A stretch of DNA of 64,000 bases, taken from Escherichia phage PSD2002. Of the stretch, positions 29,798 to 39,074 are shown in pieces. The stretch's first letter is position 1, and each line of letters opens with the position of its first letter. The translations under genes were made by a program, and so were the position numbers. Under the pieces are notes generated by a model. That model was not told the origin of the DNA. It did not search any database and saw only the letters and a list, made by a program, of their open reading frames with translations. Location of the stretch: sequence record OK335775.1, one strand, 5' to 3'.

Positions 29798-29874
29798 GGC
29801 CCTGTAGCTCAATGGTTAGCAGCAGTCCCCTCATAAGGGAAAGGTTACCAGTTCAAATCTGGTCCGGGTCACCA
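29798..29874 (+). tRNA. tRNA, anticodon CAU (Met, or Ile if lysidine-modified)
   Basis: Hand-folded cloverleaf: acceptor GGCCCTG/CCGGGTC, D-loop AATGGTTAG, anticodon loop CU-CAU-AA, T-arm ACCAG-TTCAAAT-CTGGT, encoded CCA. Confidence 0.7.
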
Positions 29875-29879
29875 ACTAT

Positions 29880-29954
29880 GTCCCGCTGGTGTAATGGATA
29901 GCATACGATCCTTCTAAGTTTGCGGTCCTGGTTCGATCCCAGGGCGGGATACCA
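29880..29954 (+). tRNA. tRNA-Arg (anticodon UCU)
   Basis: Hand-folded: acceptor GTCCCGC/GCGGGAT, anticodon loop CU-UCU-AA, T-arm CCTGG-TTCGATC-CCAGG, encoded CCA; T4 also encodes tRNA-Arg(UCU). Confidence 0.75.
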
Positions 29955-30364: not shown

Positions 30365-30399
30365 GTATAAATATGTAGTAAACTAACTTAGGAAATAAT

Positions 30400-33070: not shown

Positions 33071-33416
33071 GCCTAGTAAAACCGACCCTGGTTACGCATT
33101 AGCAGATTATGATATAGCTATTTCCTTATTCCTCGGCATTGCTACTAGTATGACTGCAGGGATAATTGGATTTCTTGTCGGTGGGATTATTAATGGTATG
33201 CCTCGCCATCCGTTTGAAGATATGAGCCTTGCATGGATTTGGGTTCCGGCTTTAATAGGATTTTTTATCCCATGGGTCTTTGATATTGCCCAAACTAATA
33301 AAATAAACAAGCCACGTAAAAAGAGATATGCTTTAGCTATGGCTAATTATAATGAGTATGTAAAACAAACTAAACGTAATGACCTTGAAACCTTTATTAA
33401 GGAATGTAAATCATGA
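33063..33416 (+). CDS. small membrane protein (two predicted TM helices), C-terminus ...FIKECKS
   Basis: ORF from MHKPSKTDP; hydrophobic segments; paralogous C-terminal half to 37287-37874. Confidence 0.5.
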   Translation: MHKPSKTDPGYALADYDIAISLFLGIATSMTAGIIGFLVGGIINGMPRHPFEDMSLAWIWVPALIGFFIPWVFDIAQTNKINKPRKKRYALAMANYNEYVKQTKRNDLETFIKECKS

Positions 33417-33703
33417 ATAAAATTGAAATTGAAATCCCGGAACACAATGACGAGAAATCTGCAGAAAAGGCTATATATGCTCTTCTGAATAAAGCGAATA
33501 CCATCGAATATGAATGTGAAGCTATTGCCGATAAGTATGGTATCCAATTCGGTACCGGTGGTTATGGTTCAGGCCGTACATATTATCCTGTCGGTTATGA
33601 ATGCTCCCAGTGGTTTAAAGATGAAATTGAAAACAACGGCGGTGAAGTTGAAAACGGTGTCGTTACAGTTGGTGCTTGGGTCTCCTCTTCGGCAATGTGC
33701 TAA
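33413..33703 (+). CDS. small protein, WxSSxxC-tail family member 1
   Basis: 96 aa ending ...GAWVSSSAMC; ATGA overlap with upstream gene. Confidence 0.55.
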   Translation: MNKIEIEIPEHNDEKSAEKAIYALLNKANTIEYECEAIADKYGIQFGTGGYGSGRTYYPVGYECSQWFKDEIENNGGEVENGVVTVGAWVSSSAMC

Positions 33704-33712
33704 GGAAACGCT

Positions 33713-33994
33713 ATGATGAATGATTACCGTAAAAATAAAGAGCTGGCTGACGCAGTAAATGATATCCATAAAGCTATTCGTCGTGCCGAGGAAATTGCTA
33801 ACAAATATGAGACTCATTTTAATATATACCCTGCTCGCGGTATGGGCGGTGACTATTATTCTCCTGGCGCCCTGAAAGCCGACCTTGCCCACTGGGAAGA
33901 ATACGGTGAAGCTCAGTACGCTATTGTAAACCAACATGATTACACTACCAGCCTAGAAAATGGTGGTTGGGTGTCCTCTTCTTCTGAATGTTAA
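33713..33994 (+). CDS. small protein, WxSSxxC-tail family member 2
   Basis: 93 aa ending ...GGWVSSSSEC; SD AAGGAAA formed by previous gene's Cys-stop codons. Confidence 0.55.
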   Translation: MMNDYRKNKELADAVNDIHKAIRRAEEIANKYETHFNIYPARGMGGDYYSPGALKADLAHWEEYGEAQYAIVNQHDYTTSLENGGWVSSSSEC

Positions 33995-34003
33995 GGAAAT
34001 AAA

Positions 34004-34216
34004 ATGACTATTGATGAAATTGAAAACCAAATCCGTGAATTAGTACGTAAAGGCCAGTCTGTGGCTGACGAAACGGGTGAAGAGTTCCGTGTTTCTGGTC
34101 GTGGAGAATACATTTCTCCAAAGAACCCGGAATATGATGATTACGAATGGGTCCGTGATGACTACGGTATTCCGGAAGGTGAAGGTTTCTGGTTTACATC
34201 CTCTATGTCTTGCTAA
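34004..34216 (+). CDS. small protein, WxSSxxC-tail family member 3
   Basis: 70 aa ending ...GFWFTSSMSC. Confidence 0.55.
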   Translation: MTIDEIENQIRELVRKGQSVADETGEEFRVSGRGEYISPKNPEYDDYEWVRDDYGIPEGEGFWFTSSMSC

Positions 34217-34227
34217 GGTGATAAAAA

Positions 34228-34452
34228 ATGTCTGATATTAATGAATTAGAAAAAGCTGCACTTGAACTGGCTGCACTGTATAAGAAAGTAAAAGATATGG
34301 CTTCTGCTCAAAGTTTTGGTGTTGAGCTCGACGATTATGACGGTGAAGTTCGTCTCGAAGATTGGCTGAATAGCTCGTGTTATGGCGAAGAAGCTGGTCG
34401 CACCTTCGTTGCTCAGGCCGATGGTAAAATCTGGTATCCGAGCTCATGCTAA
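34228..34452 (+). CDS. small protein, WxSSxxC-tail family member 4
   Basis: 74 aa ending ...KIWYPSSC. Confidence 0.55.
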   Translation: MSDINELEKAALELAALYKKVKDMASAQSFGVELDDYDGEVRLEDWLNSSCYGEEAGRTFVAQADGKIWYPSSC

Positions 34453-34673
34453 AATTAAAGAAAAGATACATTCGTAAAATAAATGGTCTTCGCGATTATG
34501 CCAAAGGTTGGCCGTTAAGTATTATTATGGCTGATAGACACCCGCGTTATAATACTGAGATGACTTATTACAAAAAGTACGATTCATATTGTCGGTCTAA
34601 AGCAGGTCGTTTAGATGGTTCTTATGAAGACTATTTCGGTAAAAAACCTACTCGTATTTCGTTAGGAAAATAA
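34446..34673 (+). CDS. hypothetical basic protein
   Basis: 75-aa ORF overlapping end of previous gene. Confidence 0.4.
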   Translation: MLKLKKRYIRKINGLRDYAKGWPLSIIMADRHPRYNTEMTYYKKYDSYCRSKAGRLDGSYEDYFGKKPTRISLGK

Positions 34674-34703
34674 TTTAACCACATGGATGTGGTAGGAGGA
34701 CTT

Positions 34704-35033
34704 ATGCATAAAGATTCAGTATTCAAATATCTTTTGAAAACAAATAAAGAATTCTATATGAATGGACAGGCCTTCTTGTTCGTTCGTGGTAAACGTGAGA
34801 TGTTTTACAAATGCGACCTCTCAATGCACCATCATATGTATCACACCCGCGGTGAGCCTATACTGGGGTTCTCTGGTGACGAGACTAGACACATAGCTAT
34901 GTACTACGACCATTTTAAGCTCAATGATTGTGGTGACAACGCTTTGGTCTGGAATCCATCTTGGTGTCGTTGGGATACGGTAGACAACGATAAATTATTT
35001 TTAGAATATTGCAGAAGCGATGTACAACTCTAA
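34704..35033 (+). CDS. hypothetical protein (His/Cys-rich)
   Basis: Start trimmed to ATG after SD GGAGGA; 109 aa. Confidence 0.45.
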   Translation: MHKDSVFKYLLKTNKEFYMNGQAFLFVRGKREMFYKCDLSMHHHMYHTRGEPILGFSGDETRHIAMYYDHFKLNDCGDNALVWNPSWCRWDTVDNDKLFLEYCRSDVQL

Positions 35034-35076
35034 AAATACGTGTTACTATTACCCTACACAAACATGAGGAGAACAT

Positions 35077-35316
35077 ATGTGGTATTACGCTCCGATGTCC
35101 GATAAGTCTAATGAACCGGTACGCATTACTCGCGCCAAGTTTAAAAAGATTTATGGCTTCTCTTATAAGAAGTCTGATTACGGTGTTCGTTTTGAAGATG
35201 CCCACTGTATCAATGACCCTTATGCTGAAGAAATCTCTAATGAGATAATTCCTATCATTAAGAATAATTCTGATGATATGTGGGAATTGCATAACGATTA
35301 CGTCGCTGAAATTTAA
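35077..35316 (+). CDS. hypothetical protein
   Basis: 79-aa ORF with SD GAGGAG. Confidence 0.45.
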   Translation: MWYYAPMSDKSNEPVRITRAKFKKIYGFSYKKSDYGVRFEDAHCINDPYAEEISNEIIPIIKNNSDDMWELHNDYVAEI

Positions 35317-35335
35317 GTTTACTGAGGAAAATATT

Positions 35336-36295
35336 ATGATGTTAGTTATTGGTTCTCGTGCACTGCACCACGCTGGTTTGATTGAAAGTAAGCATATCGA
35401 AAATTCTGATTGGGATTTCATTGCCGACCAAGGCTCATGGAATCACTTTAAAGCACGTATGTTCGGCGCCCATGTACACGTTGACAATCCTGATGTCCAG
35501 GCTTTTAAATGCATGTACAACGGTAAAGAAACCTATTTTGAAGCATATATCGTTCGTGCTCTGACTAACGTACGAGAAATTACCGGCGAGCTTCAAGACG
35601 AAGATTTCACTTCAAGCTATCGTCTCCTGAAATATGCTGAAAATCATATTAAAAAGGACCGTCTTACTGGTTTCTATTGGGCCACCCTTGATATCTGTCT
35701 GGCTATCAAAACCTCTCATCGTTTCCTTAAGAATAATCCGTTCTTCTTGAAAACTATGTCACACATCAAATACCTTCGTAATAAAGGTATCACCCTTAAC
35801 GAAGAACTCCAGGAAATTATGCTGCAACGTCAAAAAGAAACGTTGAGCTATTCTCACCCTAAATTGGACGTAAACAAATCATCGTTCTTTAATGATACCA
35901 TTTATACGCTGGACCATGACTCTATTCATGAAGCAGTGGCATTGGCAGGGCGCCCTGCATATACCTTTTATATGAAGGAAGGTTCTGAAGTCATGACCTC
36001 TCGTGAGAAGTTCGAGGCTTTGCCTGAAGCTATTAAACTGGCTGGTGTATATGAAGAAACTTGTGTCCTGGCACTAGAACGTTCACAGGTTCCTAATGAC
36101 TTCAATATTTCACCATCATTAAGTTTTTATATGGCTCTTGAGAAAGTGTGTACCTCAATCACTTCAGGTTGGTTCCGCGAGTACGCCTGGGAAAACTACC
36201 AAGCTGTAGTGAATATGTATAAGACTTTAGGTGAAAACGACTACATTGAACGGTTTAAGCGTAACCAACATTTAATTCGTCCTTTCGAAAAATAA
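35336..36295 (+). CDS. hypothetical protein with nucleotidyltransferase-like N-terminal motif and C-terminal R-x5-H
   Basis: 319 aa from MMLVIGSRALHH...NSDWDFIA (GS...DxD pattern); ...ERFKRNQH near C-terminus; assignment by motif only. Confidence 0.5.
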   Translation: MMLVIGSRALHHAGLIESKHIENSDWDFIADQGSWNHFKARMFGAHVHVDNPDVQAFKCMYNGKETYFEAYIVRALTNVREITGELQDEDFTSSYRLLKYAENHIKKDRLTGFYWATLDICLAIKTSHRFLKNNPFFLKTMSHIKYLRNKGITLNEELQEIMLQRQKETLSYSHPKLDVNKSSFFNDTIYTLDHDSIHEAVALAGRPAYTFYMKEGSEVMTSREKFEALPEAIKLAGVYEETCVLALERSQVPNDFNISPSLSFYMALEKVCTSITSGWFREYAWENYQAVVNMYKTLGENDYIERFKRNQHLIRPFEK

Positions 36296-36307
36296 TTGCA
36301 CAAAACA

Positions 36308-36352
36308 GTGTACAAGGTCTATAGGTGTGATACTATAGACCTATCAAAACAA
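36308..36352 (+). promoter_or_regulatory. early promoter cassette (PeSL-like) with 9-bp inverted repeat GGTCTATAG/CTATAGACC
   Basis: GTGTAC -35 variant 36308-36313; TGATACTATAGACCTATCAA; SD GGAGA. Confidence 0.55.
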
Positions 36353-36373
36353 CAGAGTGAAATGGAGAATAAA

Positions 36374-36586
36374 ATGAAACTTTCTAACCAAGCAATCAAC
36401 ATGTTAAACGAAGTTCGTGCAGCTGGTGCTAAATGCCTGATGGTTAACACTCGTGACGGTGACCTTCGTCAAGCATTTGGTGAATTGAAATCTGCTGACC
36501 TGGTTAAATGTTCAGTTGGTATTGGTAACGCACTTCGTGTATCCTTATCCCCTAAAGGTAAAATGTACTTTTTCAACAAAAAGTAA
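36374..36586 (+). CDS. hypothetical small protein
   Basis: ORF from MKLSNQAINML after SD; 70 aa. Confidence 0.5.
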   Translation: MKLSNQAINMLNEVRAAGAKCLMVNTRDGDLRQAFGELKSADLVKCSVGIGNALRVSLSPKGKMYFFNKK

Positions 36587-36600
36587 GTGAGGAAAATATT

Positions 36601-37287
36601 ATGAATAGTTCTAAAGTGTTTAATAGTCAAGCTCGTGCAGTAGGCGGTTTTGCTCATGCAATTAAAAACGACCAGATTAAAAACGAGCCTATGTTCTTTA
36701 ACTGCGATTTGAATTTTGCTTTTGATAATGGCGGCCCAATTACTCGTAGCTTTATCCAAAATCTTCCTGACGATTGGAAAGACTCGGATGTAGTATTTGA
36801 TTCCCGTGTACACATGTTAATGCCTGGCTGGTACCCTGCAATTCCAGGCTTCCACCATGATGATGTACCACGCCCGGATATTCCGGTGGGTCAACACTTT
36901 ATTACCGCAGGGCAACCTGATTATGATAATCCTCGATACCATTCTGAACATATTCTTGGTCTTGTTAACGCTGATGTGTGTCCTACTCATTTTGCAACCG
37001 GAACTGCACAGTTCAGTCAGATTCCTGAAGGCGAACTTATCTATCGCCAGTGGCATAAAGAAGTTCTGGAAAAAATTGAGTCCAATGAATTAACCAAGTG
37101 GAATGCTCCTGACCGCACGTTGCTCCAGTTTGATTGGCAGACATGGCATACAGGTTCTCGTGCAGTAAGTAATGGGTGGCGCTGGTTTGGTCGTGTGTCT
37201 CGTAATACAGACCGTGTTAAAAAGATTACAAATGAAATCCGCGTTAATGCTCAAGTATATCTGGAATTCCCTATGGAGGGCTGGTAA
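36601..37287 (+). CDS. hypothetical protein, possibly 2OG-Fe(II) oxygenase-like (HxD...H)
   Basis: 228 aa; motif GFHHDD followed by downstream His and Arg residues; assignment tentative. Confidence 0.45.
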   Translation: MNSSKVFNSQARAVGGFAHAIKNDQIKNEPMFFNCDLNFAFDNGGPITRSFIQNLPDDWKDSDVVFDSRVHMLMPGWYPAIPGFHHDDVPRPDIPVGQHFITAGQPDYDNPRYHSEHILGLVNADVCPTHFATGTAQFSQIPEGELIYRQWHKEVLEKIESNELTKWNAPDRTLLQFDWQTWHTGSRAVSNGWRWFGRVSRNTDRVKKITNEIRVNAQVYLEFPMEGW

Positions 37288-37874
37288 TGGCCCTTTATGA
37301 ACCTGGTTGTATGGGTATTGATACAAACTTCATCCGTCGGTCGGAAAATGCTGGAATTATTATCCCAAGTGGTGAGAATATGATTATTAAAAAGTCCTGG
37401 CGAAATATCGATGACGGTGATGAAGGAATTTCAGCCAGTACAATAGATTGGTCAGGTTGTACTGCCGAAATGAAACAGCTTTTAATTGAGGAATATAAAA
37501 TGGGCTATATCGTAAACGGCTGGCAAGCGGAACCACATAAAGAACAGACTCCAGACCCATTGATTTGTTATAGCAAAAAATACGGCTTCCGTGCCTGGAG
37601 TGATGAATACGACAAATTGGTGAGTTCTAGATTCTATGTTTGGATGGGTATATTATTTTTCCCACTCCTAGGGTTTTTCCTGACAACAGATAATGACCTG
37701 CCTATTTGTGTATTCGCTTCAGCGATGTCTGCTGCTATCTTAGGTCTTATCGCATCATTTTTATGGACCTCTGTTATCGAAGTACCTTTTCGTATTTCTA
37801 AAGTTAAAAAGGTATATGACGATATCACTAAGAAAAATACATTAAACTCTTTTATTAAGGAATGCCGTAAATGA
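37287..37874 (+). CDS. membrane protein (C-terminal TM helices), C-terminus ...FIKECRK
   Basis: 195 aa; hydrophobic segments VWMGILFFPLLGFFL and AILGLIASFLW. Confidence 0.5.
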   Translation: MALYEPGCMGIDTNFIRRSENAGIIIPSGENMIIKKSWRNIDDGDEGISASTIDWSGCTAEMKQLLIEEYKMGYIVNGWQAEPHKEQTPDPLICYSKKYGFRAWSDEYDKLVSSRFYVWMGILFFPLLGFFLTTDNDLPICVFASAMSAAILGLIASFLWTSVIEVPFRISKVKKVYDDITKKNTLNSFIKECRK

Positions 37875-38107
37875 GCATTGCAATTTATATTAAATCTGAG
37901 TCATGTGATTCTTATCTGTATTCCTATGATACCGGAACATCAGAAGAGAAAATTAAAGAAGACTTAGAAAGCGATATGGATATGTTCTGTCCTATTGGTG
38001 ACTATATGCTTCAAGTGTCTGATAGTGAAAGTCCATCATCAGAAAATAGACTTCAAATTATTATGCAAGATATTTTTAAACAATCATGGGAACGAGACGA
38101 TGAGTAA
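37871..38107 (+). CDS. hypothetical acidic protein
   Basis: 78-aa ORF, ATGA overlap. Confidence 0.45.
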   Translation: MSIAIYIKSESCDSYLYSYDTGTSEEKIKEDLESDMDMFCPIGDYMLQVSDSESPSSENRLQIIMQDIFKQSWERDDE

Positions 38108-38549
38108 GAAAGTGAAAGAACTATCTGCCGGTATTTTATTCATGACCGTTGATAAAGAACTGGTCATGGGCCGTGTAACAGGCTCTCGTAATCCAGAGAA
38201 TATGCGTCATAAATGGGACATTCCTAAGGGTCATGTCGAACCAGGCGAAGAGCCTATTCAAGCGGCAATGCGCGAAACCGAAGAAGAGATTGGATTCACA
38301 GCATACGATCCTGCGTTCCTGAAAGACCTAGGTGAGTTCAAATATTCAAGCAATAAGAATCTACATCTGTTCTTATATACAGTGCCTGTGGAACACGAGC
38401 AGTTCAAGGATTGCAAATGTACGGCTTACCATACGTTCCCTGATGGTCGTACTATTCCTGAATTCGATGCTTTTGCCTTGATTAAACGGCCACAATGGGA
38501 ATATGTCATGGGCCCGTCGATGTTTAAGGTTTTGGATTCACTCTTTTGA
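38100..38549 (+). CDS. nudE: NUDIX hydrolase (NudE-like)
   Basis: Nudix box GHVEPGEEPIQAAMRETEEEIGF; position immediately upstream of e as T4 nudE (e.1). Confidence 0.8.
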   Translation: MSKKVKELSAGILFMTVDKELVMGRVTGSRNPENMRHKWDIPKGHVEPGEEPIQAAMRETEEEIGFTAYDPAFLKDLGEFKYSSNKNLHLFLYTVPVEHEQFKDCKCTAYHTFPDGRTIPEFDAFALIKRPQWEYVMGPSMFKVLDSLF

Positions 38550-38577
38550 TATAAATACCTCCTATACTCAGGAGGTA
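38550..38577 (+). promoter_or_regulatory. late promoter (TATAAATA) overlapping a hairpin that sequesters the gene e ribosome-binding site
   Basis: TATAAATA 38550-38557; stem TACCTCC/GGAGGTA (38556-38562 / 38571-38577) contains the SD; same arrangement as described for T4 gene e. Confidence 0.7.
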
Positions 38578-38579
38578 TT

Positions 38580-39074
38580 ATGGATATTTTTGATATGTTA
38601 CGTCAAGACGAAGGTCTTGATTTAAATCTTTATAAAGACACTGAAGGTTATTGGACTATTGGCATTGGCCAATTGATTACTAAGAACCCTTCTAAAGATG
38701 TTGCTCGTGCTGAACTTGATAAGCTTATGGGTCGAGTTTGTAATGGTCGTATTACTATGGCTGAAGCTGAACAACTCTTTAACCGATCGGTTGAAAATGC
38801 TCGTAGAGCTATTCTGCGTAATCCTAAATTGAAACCTGTTTATGATGTACTGGACGAAGTTCGTCGTTGTGCTTTAATTAACATGGTCTTCCAAATGGGT
38901 GAAGCAGGCGTAGCAGGGTTCACCAACTCTTTACGTATGCTCCAACAGAAACGTTGGAACGATGCGGCAGTTAACCTGGCTCAATCCCGTTGGTATAAAC
39001 AAACTCCTAATCGTGCTAAGCGCGTGATTTCAACATTTAAAACAGGTACTTGGAAAGCATATGAAAACTTATAA
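38580..39074 (+). CDS. e: endolysin (T4 lysozyme)
   Basis: 164 aa; [25 protein letters not shown]...[31 protein letters not shown] matches recalled T4 lysozyme. Confidence 0.95.

Follow-up and report, generated by a model that had tools for sequence, protein, structure and literature searches.

Two genes at positions 35,336 to 37,287 of a 64,000-nucleotide (nt) stretch of Escherichia phage PSD2002 (OK335775.1; the whole stretch is called the window below) appear to specify unrelated, independently mobile accessory enzymes, a nucleotidyltransferase (NTase) of 319 amino acids (aa) and an Fe(II)/2-oxoglutarate (2OG) dioxygenase of 228 aa, the former belonging to a phage-restricted cassette together with an array of small acidic proteins of the family phrog_899. 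We put the probability of this reading as a whole at about 0.6. There is very little doubt that the first protein is a Pol-beta-superfamily NTase and the second an Fe(II)/2OG dioxygenase; each adds a new member, at the family level, to a known superfamily, and the coupling of the NTase to small proteins with a common C-terminal tail is also new. In current annotation, proteins of both enzyme families are called hypothetical or wrongly named as structural proteins. An earlier note, made from the letters of the window, had interpreted the region as a single accessory module containing a fused NTase-HEPN protein of the toxin–antitoxin (TA) type and an oxygenase-like protein. Its observations are partly confirmed and its interpretation partly supported, in that the NTase and the dioxygenase stand while the HEPN domain and the module do not. 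The three open reading frames (ORFs) on which it rested were recovered as described, with 319 aa at 35336-36295, 70 aa at 36374-36586 and 228 aa at 36601-37287, all on the + strand.

The nucleotidyltransferase and the small proteins coupled to it

The NTase (phrog_2141) starts at the ATG at 35336, with a GAGGA Shine-Dalgarno box 7 nt upstream, and this box, together with the 960-nt coding sequence (CDS) annotated in phages Bp7 and JS98, is the reason for preferring the 319-aa start over a longer ORF of 340 aa. The protein matches the Pfam families DUF7277 (residues 2-101, E 8.7e-27) and DUF7275 (residues 120-305, E 1.8e-77), the only models found in a Pfam scan at E<=1, which gave no hit to DUF1814/AbiEii. 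NCBIfam and PADLOC returned no match, sequence and profile searches against PDB sequences gave nothing significant (a match to the KEN region of RNase L had an E value of 0.74), and literature searches with the DUF and PHROG names of the families described here returned nothing.

The catalytic alpha/beta core lies in the N-lobe, residues 1-105 (35336-35650, +), as delimited by invariant residues and a structural model. As had been noticed earlier, the protein opens with MMLVIGSRALHH...NSDWDFIA, a GS...DxD pattern, and this is far beyond chance: in an alignment of 59 homologues with identity down to 44%, G6-S7 (35351-35356, +), D25-x-D27 (35408-35416, +) and a third carboxylate, E69, are invariant (I-G6-S7-x17-D25-W-D27). 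A more general form, hhhGS-x12-22-DxD, opens 77 of the 80 family ORFs at viral loci, even where the N-domain cannot otherwise be aligned. The AlphaFold2 model (pLDDT 92.3, pTM 0.86) has an alpha/beta N-lobe of the order b1-GS-a-b2(DxD)-a-b-b-b(E69), with E69 in the strand formed by residues 64-73, followed by an all-helical C-lobe. Three features that define Pol-beta NTases were found, namely the hG[GS]...DhD/E motif, a carboxylate on a later strand and the alpha/beta NTase core fold. The assignment is well supported, because the invariant motif residues and the fold of the model agree, and the catalytic residues are intact.

The C-lobe (residues 120-305, DUF7275; 35693-36250, +), defined by Pfam, alignment and model, spans about 200 residues and is more conserved than the N-lobe, with about 50 invariant residues in the 59 homologues. 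These include K125, H128, K139, R165, E168, H174, D193-H194-D195, H198, E240-E241, E248-R249, K270 and R281, and the cluster of Lys, His, Asp, Glu and Arg residues presumably forms the site for the acceptor and the nucleotide base. The motifs KxSH, YxHDSIH, EE..ER and KTxTS are retained in distant actinophage and marine homologues of about 250 aa and about 30% identity, as found in Streptomyces phage Circinus, Gordonia phage Smoothie, Mycobacterium phage WXIN and Pseudoalteromonas phage HM1. Homologues consisting of the C-lobe alone were also considered; most of them proved to be full-length, their N-lobes having diverged but retained GS...DxD. There are 2034 NTase homologues in the protein database, and the family is encoded in 733 phage records. 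A pattern scan of 185,579 species-representative genomes found it in only five contigs of metagenome-assembled genomes, so that, judged by sequence pattern and within the reach of that scan, it is a phage-restricted family. In GenBank, the homologue of Klebsiella phage vB_KpnM-VAC36 is mislabelled as a 'prohead assembly scaffold protein', and that of Pseudomonas phage REC is already named 'nucleotidyltransferase'.

When neighbouring genes were clustered across 59 diverse NTase-bearing viral loci, the commonest (51 loci) were found to encode proteins of about 60-100 aa, upstream on the same strand and often in several copies. In the window there are exactly four, all in one array at 33413-34452 (+) according to the family hidden Markov model (HMM). 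The first (96 aa, 33413-33703; phrog_899 E 1.5e-23) ends in GAWVSSSAMC, the second (93 aa, 33713-33994; E 7.3e-20) in GGWVSSSSEC and the third (70 aa, 34004-34216; E 6.2e-14) in FWFTSSMSC, while the fourth (74 aa, 34228-34452; E 1.4e-9) has an internal DWLNSSC, followed by YGEE, as well as a terminal IWYPSSC. This two-tag layout recurs in Aeromonas-type and other loci (L038, L049 and L072), and the sequences suggest that a unit was duplicated within the gene or that two units were fused. None of the four has a Pfam model or a real PDB relative in sequence and profile searches, and no literature on the family was found.

Family members begin with an amphipathic helix (…LADE.G..F), which in about half of the cases is followed by a Gly/Tyr-rich YG.G.tYyP segment; then come an acidic linker (median net charge about -9) and a tail that reads G-G-W-x-S-S-S-x-x-C or W-x-x-S-S-C. 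The pattern W-x-x-[SAT]-[SNT]-x0-2-C closes 176 of the 202 family matches, and the only invariant columns are the W, one S and the terminal C. The homologue in phage IME540 is mislabelled in GenBank as a 'tail completion protein'.

With the family HMM applied to 80 NTase loci, which were retrieved with a bias towards conserved C-lobe peptides and T4-like phages, a phrog_899 copy was found in 73, and in 72 of them at least one copy lies upstream on the same strand. Copies per locus number none (7 loci), one (12), two (30), three (10), four (19) or six (2). Between the last copy and the NTase start lie about 430 nt in the median, and at most 150 nt in 23 loci. Fifteen of the 17 NTase sequence clusters have the small proteins, and the cassette is carried by phages as different as Pseudomonas Otagovirus phiPsa347 (99.7 kb), coliphage WPEC1 (161 kb), Klebsiella jumbo phage fENko-Kae01 (360 kb) and an Acinetobacter phage. 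As a control, no phrog_899 copy at all was found in 64 dioxygenase-centred loci that lack the NTase and together cover about 0.7 Mb of DNA from diverse phages, and among 80 dioxygenase loci phrog_899 and the NTase occur in precisely the same 16. The family is too divergent for pattern-based locus retrieval; a converse profile search with the small proteins gave matches on NTase-bearing contigs, and in two newly inspected contigs a DUF7277+DUF7275 gene follows 40 nt and 3 kb downstream of the match. The actinophage and marine NTase homologues have no phrog_899 proteins at their loci, so the coupling is confined to the clade from phages of Gram-negative hosts, where most NTase members are tied to this previously unnoticed family. 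We consider it very likely that the genomic coupling is real and extends across unrelated lineages of large phages.

The dioxygenase and its independence from the nucleotidyltransferase

The 228-aa protein (phrog_1843; 36601-37287, +) belongs to a family without a Pfam model. Searches of it against Pfam, NCBIfam, PADLOC and PDB sequences gave no significant match, and none of 70 diverse family members matches a Pfam 2OG family (2OG-FeII_Oxy, PhyH, TauD and others). An exhaustive search yielded homologues in 623 representative clusters, and conservation was scored in the 70 members, at 31-53% identity. The earlier note had pointed to GFHHDD and downstream His and Arg residues as a possible facial triad, and the protein does contain G83-F-H85-H86-D87-D88, H183 and R194. 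H85 and R194 are invariant among the 70 members, D87, H183 and R198 are conserved in at least 90%, and H86 is variable; in close homologues H85, D87 and H183 are invariant. Because H86 varies while the other three are conserved, the triad is H85-x-D87 (36853-36861, +) with H183 (37147-37149, +), and R194 (37180-37182, +) follows 11 residues after the distal His, at the start of the strand formed by residues 192-201.

In 2OG oxygenases the HxD motif canonically lies on strand II of a double-stranded beta-helix, the distal His on strand VII and the Arg on strand VIII. The model of the phage protein has this fold with strands I-VIII and the same arrangement, R194 lying where strand VIII begins, H183 on VII and HxD at II, so that the suggested 2OG-Fe(II) triad is borne out by conservation as well as by the predicted structure. 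An HMM alignment with BesD puts H183 and R194 on its distal His and Arg, in a match that is itself non-significant (E about 1). By analogy, H85, D87 and H183 would bind iron and R194 the C5 carboxylate of 2OG, with oxidation of a substrate. Within the superfamily, this family forms a separate branch, as yet uncurated, that comes nearest to the PhyH-like class (PhyH, EctD, EasH and proline hydroxylases), with which it shares the double-stranded beta-helix, H-x-D...H and an Arg 11 residues past the distal His. T4-like cyanophages carry uncharacterised 2OG-Fe(II)/PhyH-domain genes (PMC3037559), and in that sense this kind of oxygenase was already known, though the present family was not annotated.

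Several Arg residues (R69, R91, R194, R198 and R214) are conserved across the family. Since these are many, and since the protein evolves slowly and spreads horizontally on its own, its sequence record suggests a universal and probably anionic substrate. It is among the most conserved accessory proteins of these genomes, and as a gene that moves alone it is a candidate auxiliary metabolic enzyme acting on such a substrate. No consistent neighbour was found in 64 loci that have the dioxygenase only (a subset of L093-L172). The commonest encode a NadV-like protein of 488 aa (12 of the 64), an ATP-dependent DNA ligase (9) and a NadM-Nudix-like protein of 342 aa (7), and in the window the Nudix hydrolase gene nudE lies two genes downstream of the dioxygenase. 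The NAD-salvage genes, the ligase and nudE are a weak hint of nucleotide- or NAD-related chemistry. A paper on 5-hydroxycytosine DNA (PMC13326640) was set aside as irrelevant, its subject being ThyA-like enzymes and a sugar nucleotidyltransferase. The homologue in Escherichia phage vB_EcoM_005 is mislabelled in GenBank as a 'tail sheath monomer'.

The two enzymes occur together in a minority of loci. The dioxygenase gene lies at most 3 kb downstream of the NTase in only 23 of 80 NTase loci, those of enterobacterial T4-like phages and of two 230-kb Aeromonas phages, and in the other 57 none is found within 6 kb. Conversely, 64 of 80 dioxygenase loci have neither the NTase nor phrog_899. At more than 72% identity, the dioxygenase stands alone in a siphovirus-type contig of about 60 kb and in Klebsiella phage-plasmid-like contigs with gp32, RecA and Rep3, and Aeromonas phage SW69-9 has the two genes at a distance of about 130 kb from each other. 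With considerable confidence, the NTase and the dioxygenase can be regarded as independent, and not as the functional pair or single accessory module that had been supposed.

Possible roles of the cassette and competing readings

The NTase would catalyse a Mg2+-dependent transfer of a nucleoside monophosphate from a nucleoside triphosphate onto a hydroxyl acceptor, and the phrog_899 proteins would be its dedicated partners. Their likeliest role would be that of tag-bearing substrates, the Ser-rich tail being nucleotidylylated by the NTase; alternatively, they might be MenA1-like regulators of an RNA-directed activity at tRNA 3' ends. In either case, the NTase and the small proteins are a concrete two-component candidate for host takeover or counter-defence, and possibly for a new protein modification. 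The substrate role is put forward tentatively and by analogy. C-terminal sorting or processing tags are paired with a dedicated enzyme in the LPXTG/sortase, PEP-CTERM/exosortase and CaaX systems. Tail nucleotidylylation is favoured because here, as there, divergent paralogues share only a short terminal tag and are encoded beside one enzyme gene; the difference is that the enzyme of the phage cassette is a nucleotidyltransferase and not a protease or transpeptidase, and that processing is only proposed. A more specific version, which we hold to be doubtful, is that the DUF7275 lobe reads the W-x-x-S-S-x(0-2)-Cys tag and that the NTase covalently nucleotidylylates a tail Ser or a Tyr of YG.G.Y.P. 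In its boldest form, activation of the Ser, elimination and attack by the terminal Cys would give a lanthionine- or aminovinyl-cysteine (AviCys)-like ring, and hence a maturation of small phage effectors like that of ribosomally synthesized and post-translationally modified peptides. If the tag is read in this way, hundreds of large phages would encode a tag-directed protein nucleotidylylation system.

In bacteria, MenT/AbiEii-type nucleotidyltransferases serve as toxins and as effectors of abortive infection directed against phages. The top-ranking Foldseek match of the NTase model is MenT1 (E 2.2e-3, probability 1.00, TM 0.50 on the target), with 187 alignment columns against a 195-residue chain and a sequence identity of only 8%, and the bi-lobed fold common to MenT1, MenT3 and MenT4 is also present in the model. 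The MenT/AbiEii group is defined by four motifs, among them hG[G/S]x15DhD, motif III KLxAaxxR and motif IV +DxxD (PMC3985639), and the catalytic residues of MenT1 are T39, D41, K137 and D152 (PMC10435456). In the phage NTase the G[GS]-DxD spacing is similarly long (x17, and 12-22 across the family). The region of motif III reads K125(100%)-[M/L]-S-H128-R129-[Y/F]-x-[K/R]132, a partial fit in which the Lys, the hydrophobic residue at +1 and the basic residue at +7 are present but the A-aromatic pair is absent. Motif IV was not found 15-22 residues after K125, where it would be expected, the nearest invariant acidic residues being E168 and D193/D195. As modelled, the protein is therefore MenT-like in architecture, and it is not a DUF1814 member, because it lacks a DUF1814 HMM match and motif IV. 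It also differs from MenT/AbiEii proteins in its C-lobe of about 200 residues with an invariant His/Asp/Glu cluster of its own, and in that its genes are found in virulent phages rather than in TA or abortive-infection loci of cells. It thus represents a related but distinct family carried by phages themselves, comprising T4-like phages, Otagovirus, coliphages of about 150 kb, 360-kb jumbo phages and actinophages.

It follows from this likeness that the NTase might add nucleotides to the acceptor ends of tRNAs or to other RNA 3' ends, shutting off host translation or countering tRNA-directed host defences, with the small proteins as MenA1-like inhibitors or timers. Such a role is the main rival to tail nucleotidylylation and, though unlikely, only slightly less probable: the gene of MenA1 (68 aa) likewise directly precedes that of MenT1 (PMC10435456), and MenT1 has the structure closest to that of the NTase. 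Besides the lack of a Pfam AbiEii/DUF1814 match and of motif IV at the expected spacing, this reading has to contend with the fold scores of the small-molecule modifiers ANT(2'') and LnuA, which are almost equal to that of MenT1, and with the upstream proteins, since one to six divergent paralogues with only a terminal W..SS..C tag in common are unusual for an antitoxin and unlike the MenT1/MenA1 arrangement. A general tRNA poison would, moreover, harm the phage too. Proximity to tRNA genes is a weak clue to function, a tRNA gene lying within 6 kb in only six of 43 diverse NTase loci. Two contexts may be mentioned: in Gordonia phage Smoothie the NTase homologue gp16 lies 1.2 kb upstream of a tRNA array, and in Streptomyces phage Circinus the homologue lies 2.2 kb downstream of a polynucleotide kinase gene (gp173/gp181). 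They are compatible with an RNA-end function but anecdotal.

In a third reading, the NTase would act as ANT(2'')-Ia and LnuA do and nucleotidylylate a small molecule, perhaps an immune signalling molecule, an antibiotic-like compound or a metabolite of the host, and the small genes would merely hitch-hike. This is improbable in view of the retention of the cassette across unrelated phage lineages and of the small genes that often abut the NTase start. In addition, ANT(2'')-Ia and LnuA are proteins of about 160-180 aa with small C-domains and antibiotic substrates, whereas the phage NTase has a C-lobe of about 200 residues unlike the ANT or Lnu C-domains and shows neither a sequence relationship to them nor a resistance context.

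Equally improbable is a single pathway in which NTase, dioxygenase and small proteins act jointly in those T4-like phages that have all three, for example by hydroxylation and nucleotidylylation of the same tails. In its favour are the 23 loci with an adjacent dioxygenase, among them those of the two Aeromonas phages in which the NTase is only 44-45% identical to that of the window, and the identical ribosome-binding contexts of the two genes in the window: NTase (35321-35338) and dioxygenase (36586-36603) share the 16-nt translation-initiation context TGAGGAAAATATTATG (+). It does not agree with the far more numerous loci that have one enzyme without the other, nor with the solitary dioxygenase genes of siphophage-like contigs and phage-plasmids. 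The two proteins have also evolved at very different rates, since in the same comparison with the 230-kb Aeromonas phages the dioxygenase is about 80% identical and the NTase 44%.

The fused NTase-HEPN protein, akin to the MNT/HEPN TA type and with the C-terminal R-x5-H as an RNase active site, can be dismissed on grounds of conservation and fold: R306-x5-H312 (36251-36271, +) does exist, seven residues before the end and not at the very end as had been stated, but it behaves like a chance occurrence, with R306 conserved in 88% and H312 in 64% (D in 25%, E in 7%) of the 59 aligned sequences of a family with more than 50 invariant residues, and neither a HEPN four-helix-bundle fold nor a HEPN-clan profile match was found in fold and HMM searches, the non-significant RNase L match falling in a different part of the protein. 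Like MNT-HEPN modules and the KNTase-type fusions of an NTase with a HEPN-like domain, the phage protein consists of a minimal NTase at the N-terminus with a helical domain behind it, but it has no fold match to HEPN, its Rx4-6H is not conserved and a HEPN protein as a separate partner is lacking.

Genomic setting and neighbouring features

The window comes from a Dhakavirus-type T4-like phage, and its positions 34600-38600 share 97% identity with Shigella phage PSD9 and Escherichia phages WG01 and Bp7. In the curated records of Bp7 and JS98 the genes of the NTase/dioxygenase block are all labelled 'hypothetical protein', and the block is placed upstream of the T4-like genes for the e.2 membrane protein, nudE and the lysozyme e. 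From about 32.5 to 38.5 kb the genes have the same orientation and little space between them (gaps of -8 to +78 nt), and they carry Shine-Dalgarno-like sequences. The only T4-type late boxes (TATAAATA, + strand), one at 30366 and one at 38550 just before the lysozyme gene, flank the entire block of small ORFs, NTase and dioxygenase, with none inside it. A tRNA-Met(CAT) and a tRNA-Arg(TCT) gene lie at 29798-29954 (+), 5.4 kb upstream of the NTase, and the order tRNA, small ORFs, nudE and e therefore mirrors that of T4. The equivalent interval of T4 has no relative of the NTase or the dioxygenase, and in that sense the two genes are accessory.

Two further small ORFs flank the NTase. One of 79 aa (phrog_3723; 35077-35316, +), directly upstream of the NTase, occurs in 12 of 80 NTase loci; it is lineage-specific and probably outside the NTase cassette. 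The other, the 70-aa ORF between the two enzymes (phrog_6001, E 3.1e-42; 36374-36586, +), occurs in six of the 80 and is a Dhakavirus-specific filler. Both were considered as partners of the enzymes and rejected as lineage-specific.

The spacer of 78 nt between the NTase and the 70-aa ORF, the sole sizeable intergenic gap of the block, had been thought to hold a promoter cassette, but 36296-36373 has neither a sigma-70-like site on the + strand nor a T4 late box. What it does contain is an RNA hairpin at 36315-36342 (+; GGUCUAUAGG...CUAUAGACC region) with a perfect 10-bp stem and an 8-nt loop (dG -19.5 kcal/mol, z -3.54). No T-run follows it, and prediction of promoters and terminators did not pick it out; a part in the processing or stability of the RNA is conceivable instead. 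Downstream of the dioxygenase, the ATG of the e.2-like membrane protein gene (37287-37874, +) begins at 37287, the last base of the dioxygenase stop codon. The N-terminal 31 or so residues of this protein lie outside the phrog_2203 profile and the corresponding CDS of JS98 is shorter (495 nt), so that the true start may lie further downstream than the annotated one.

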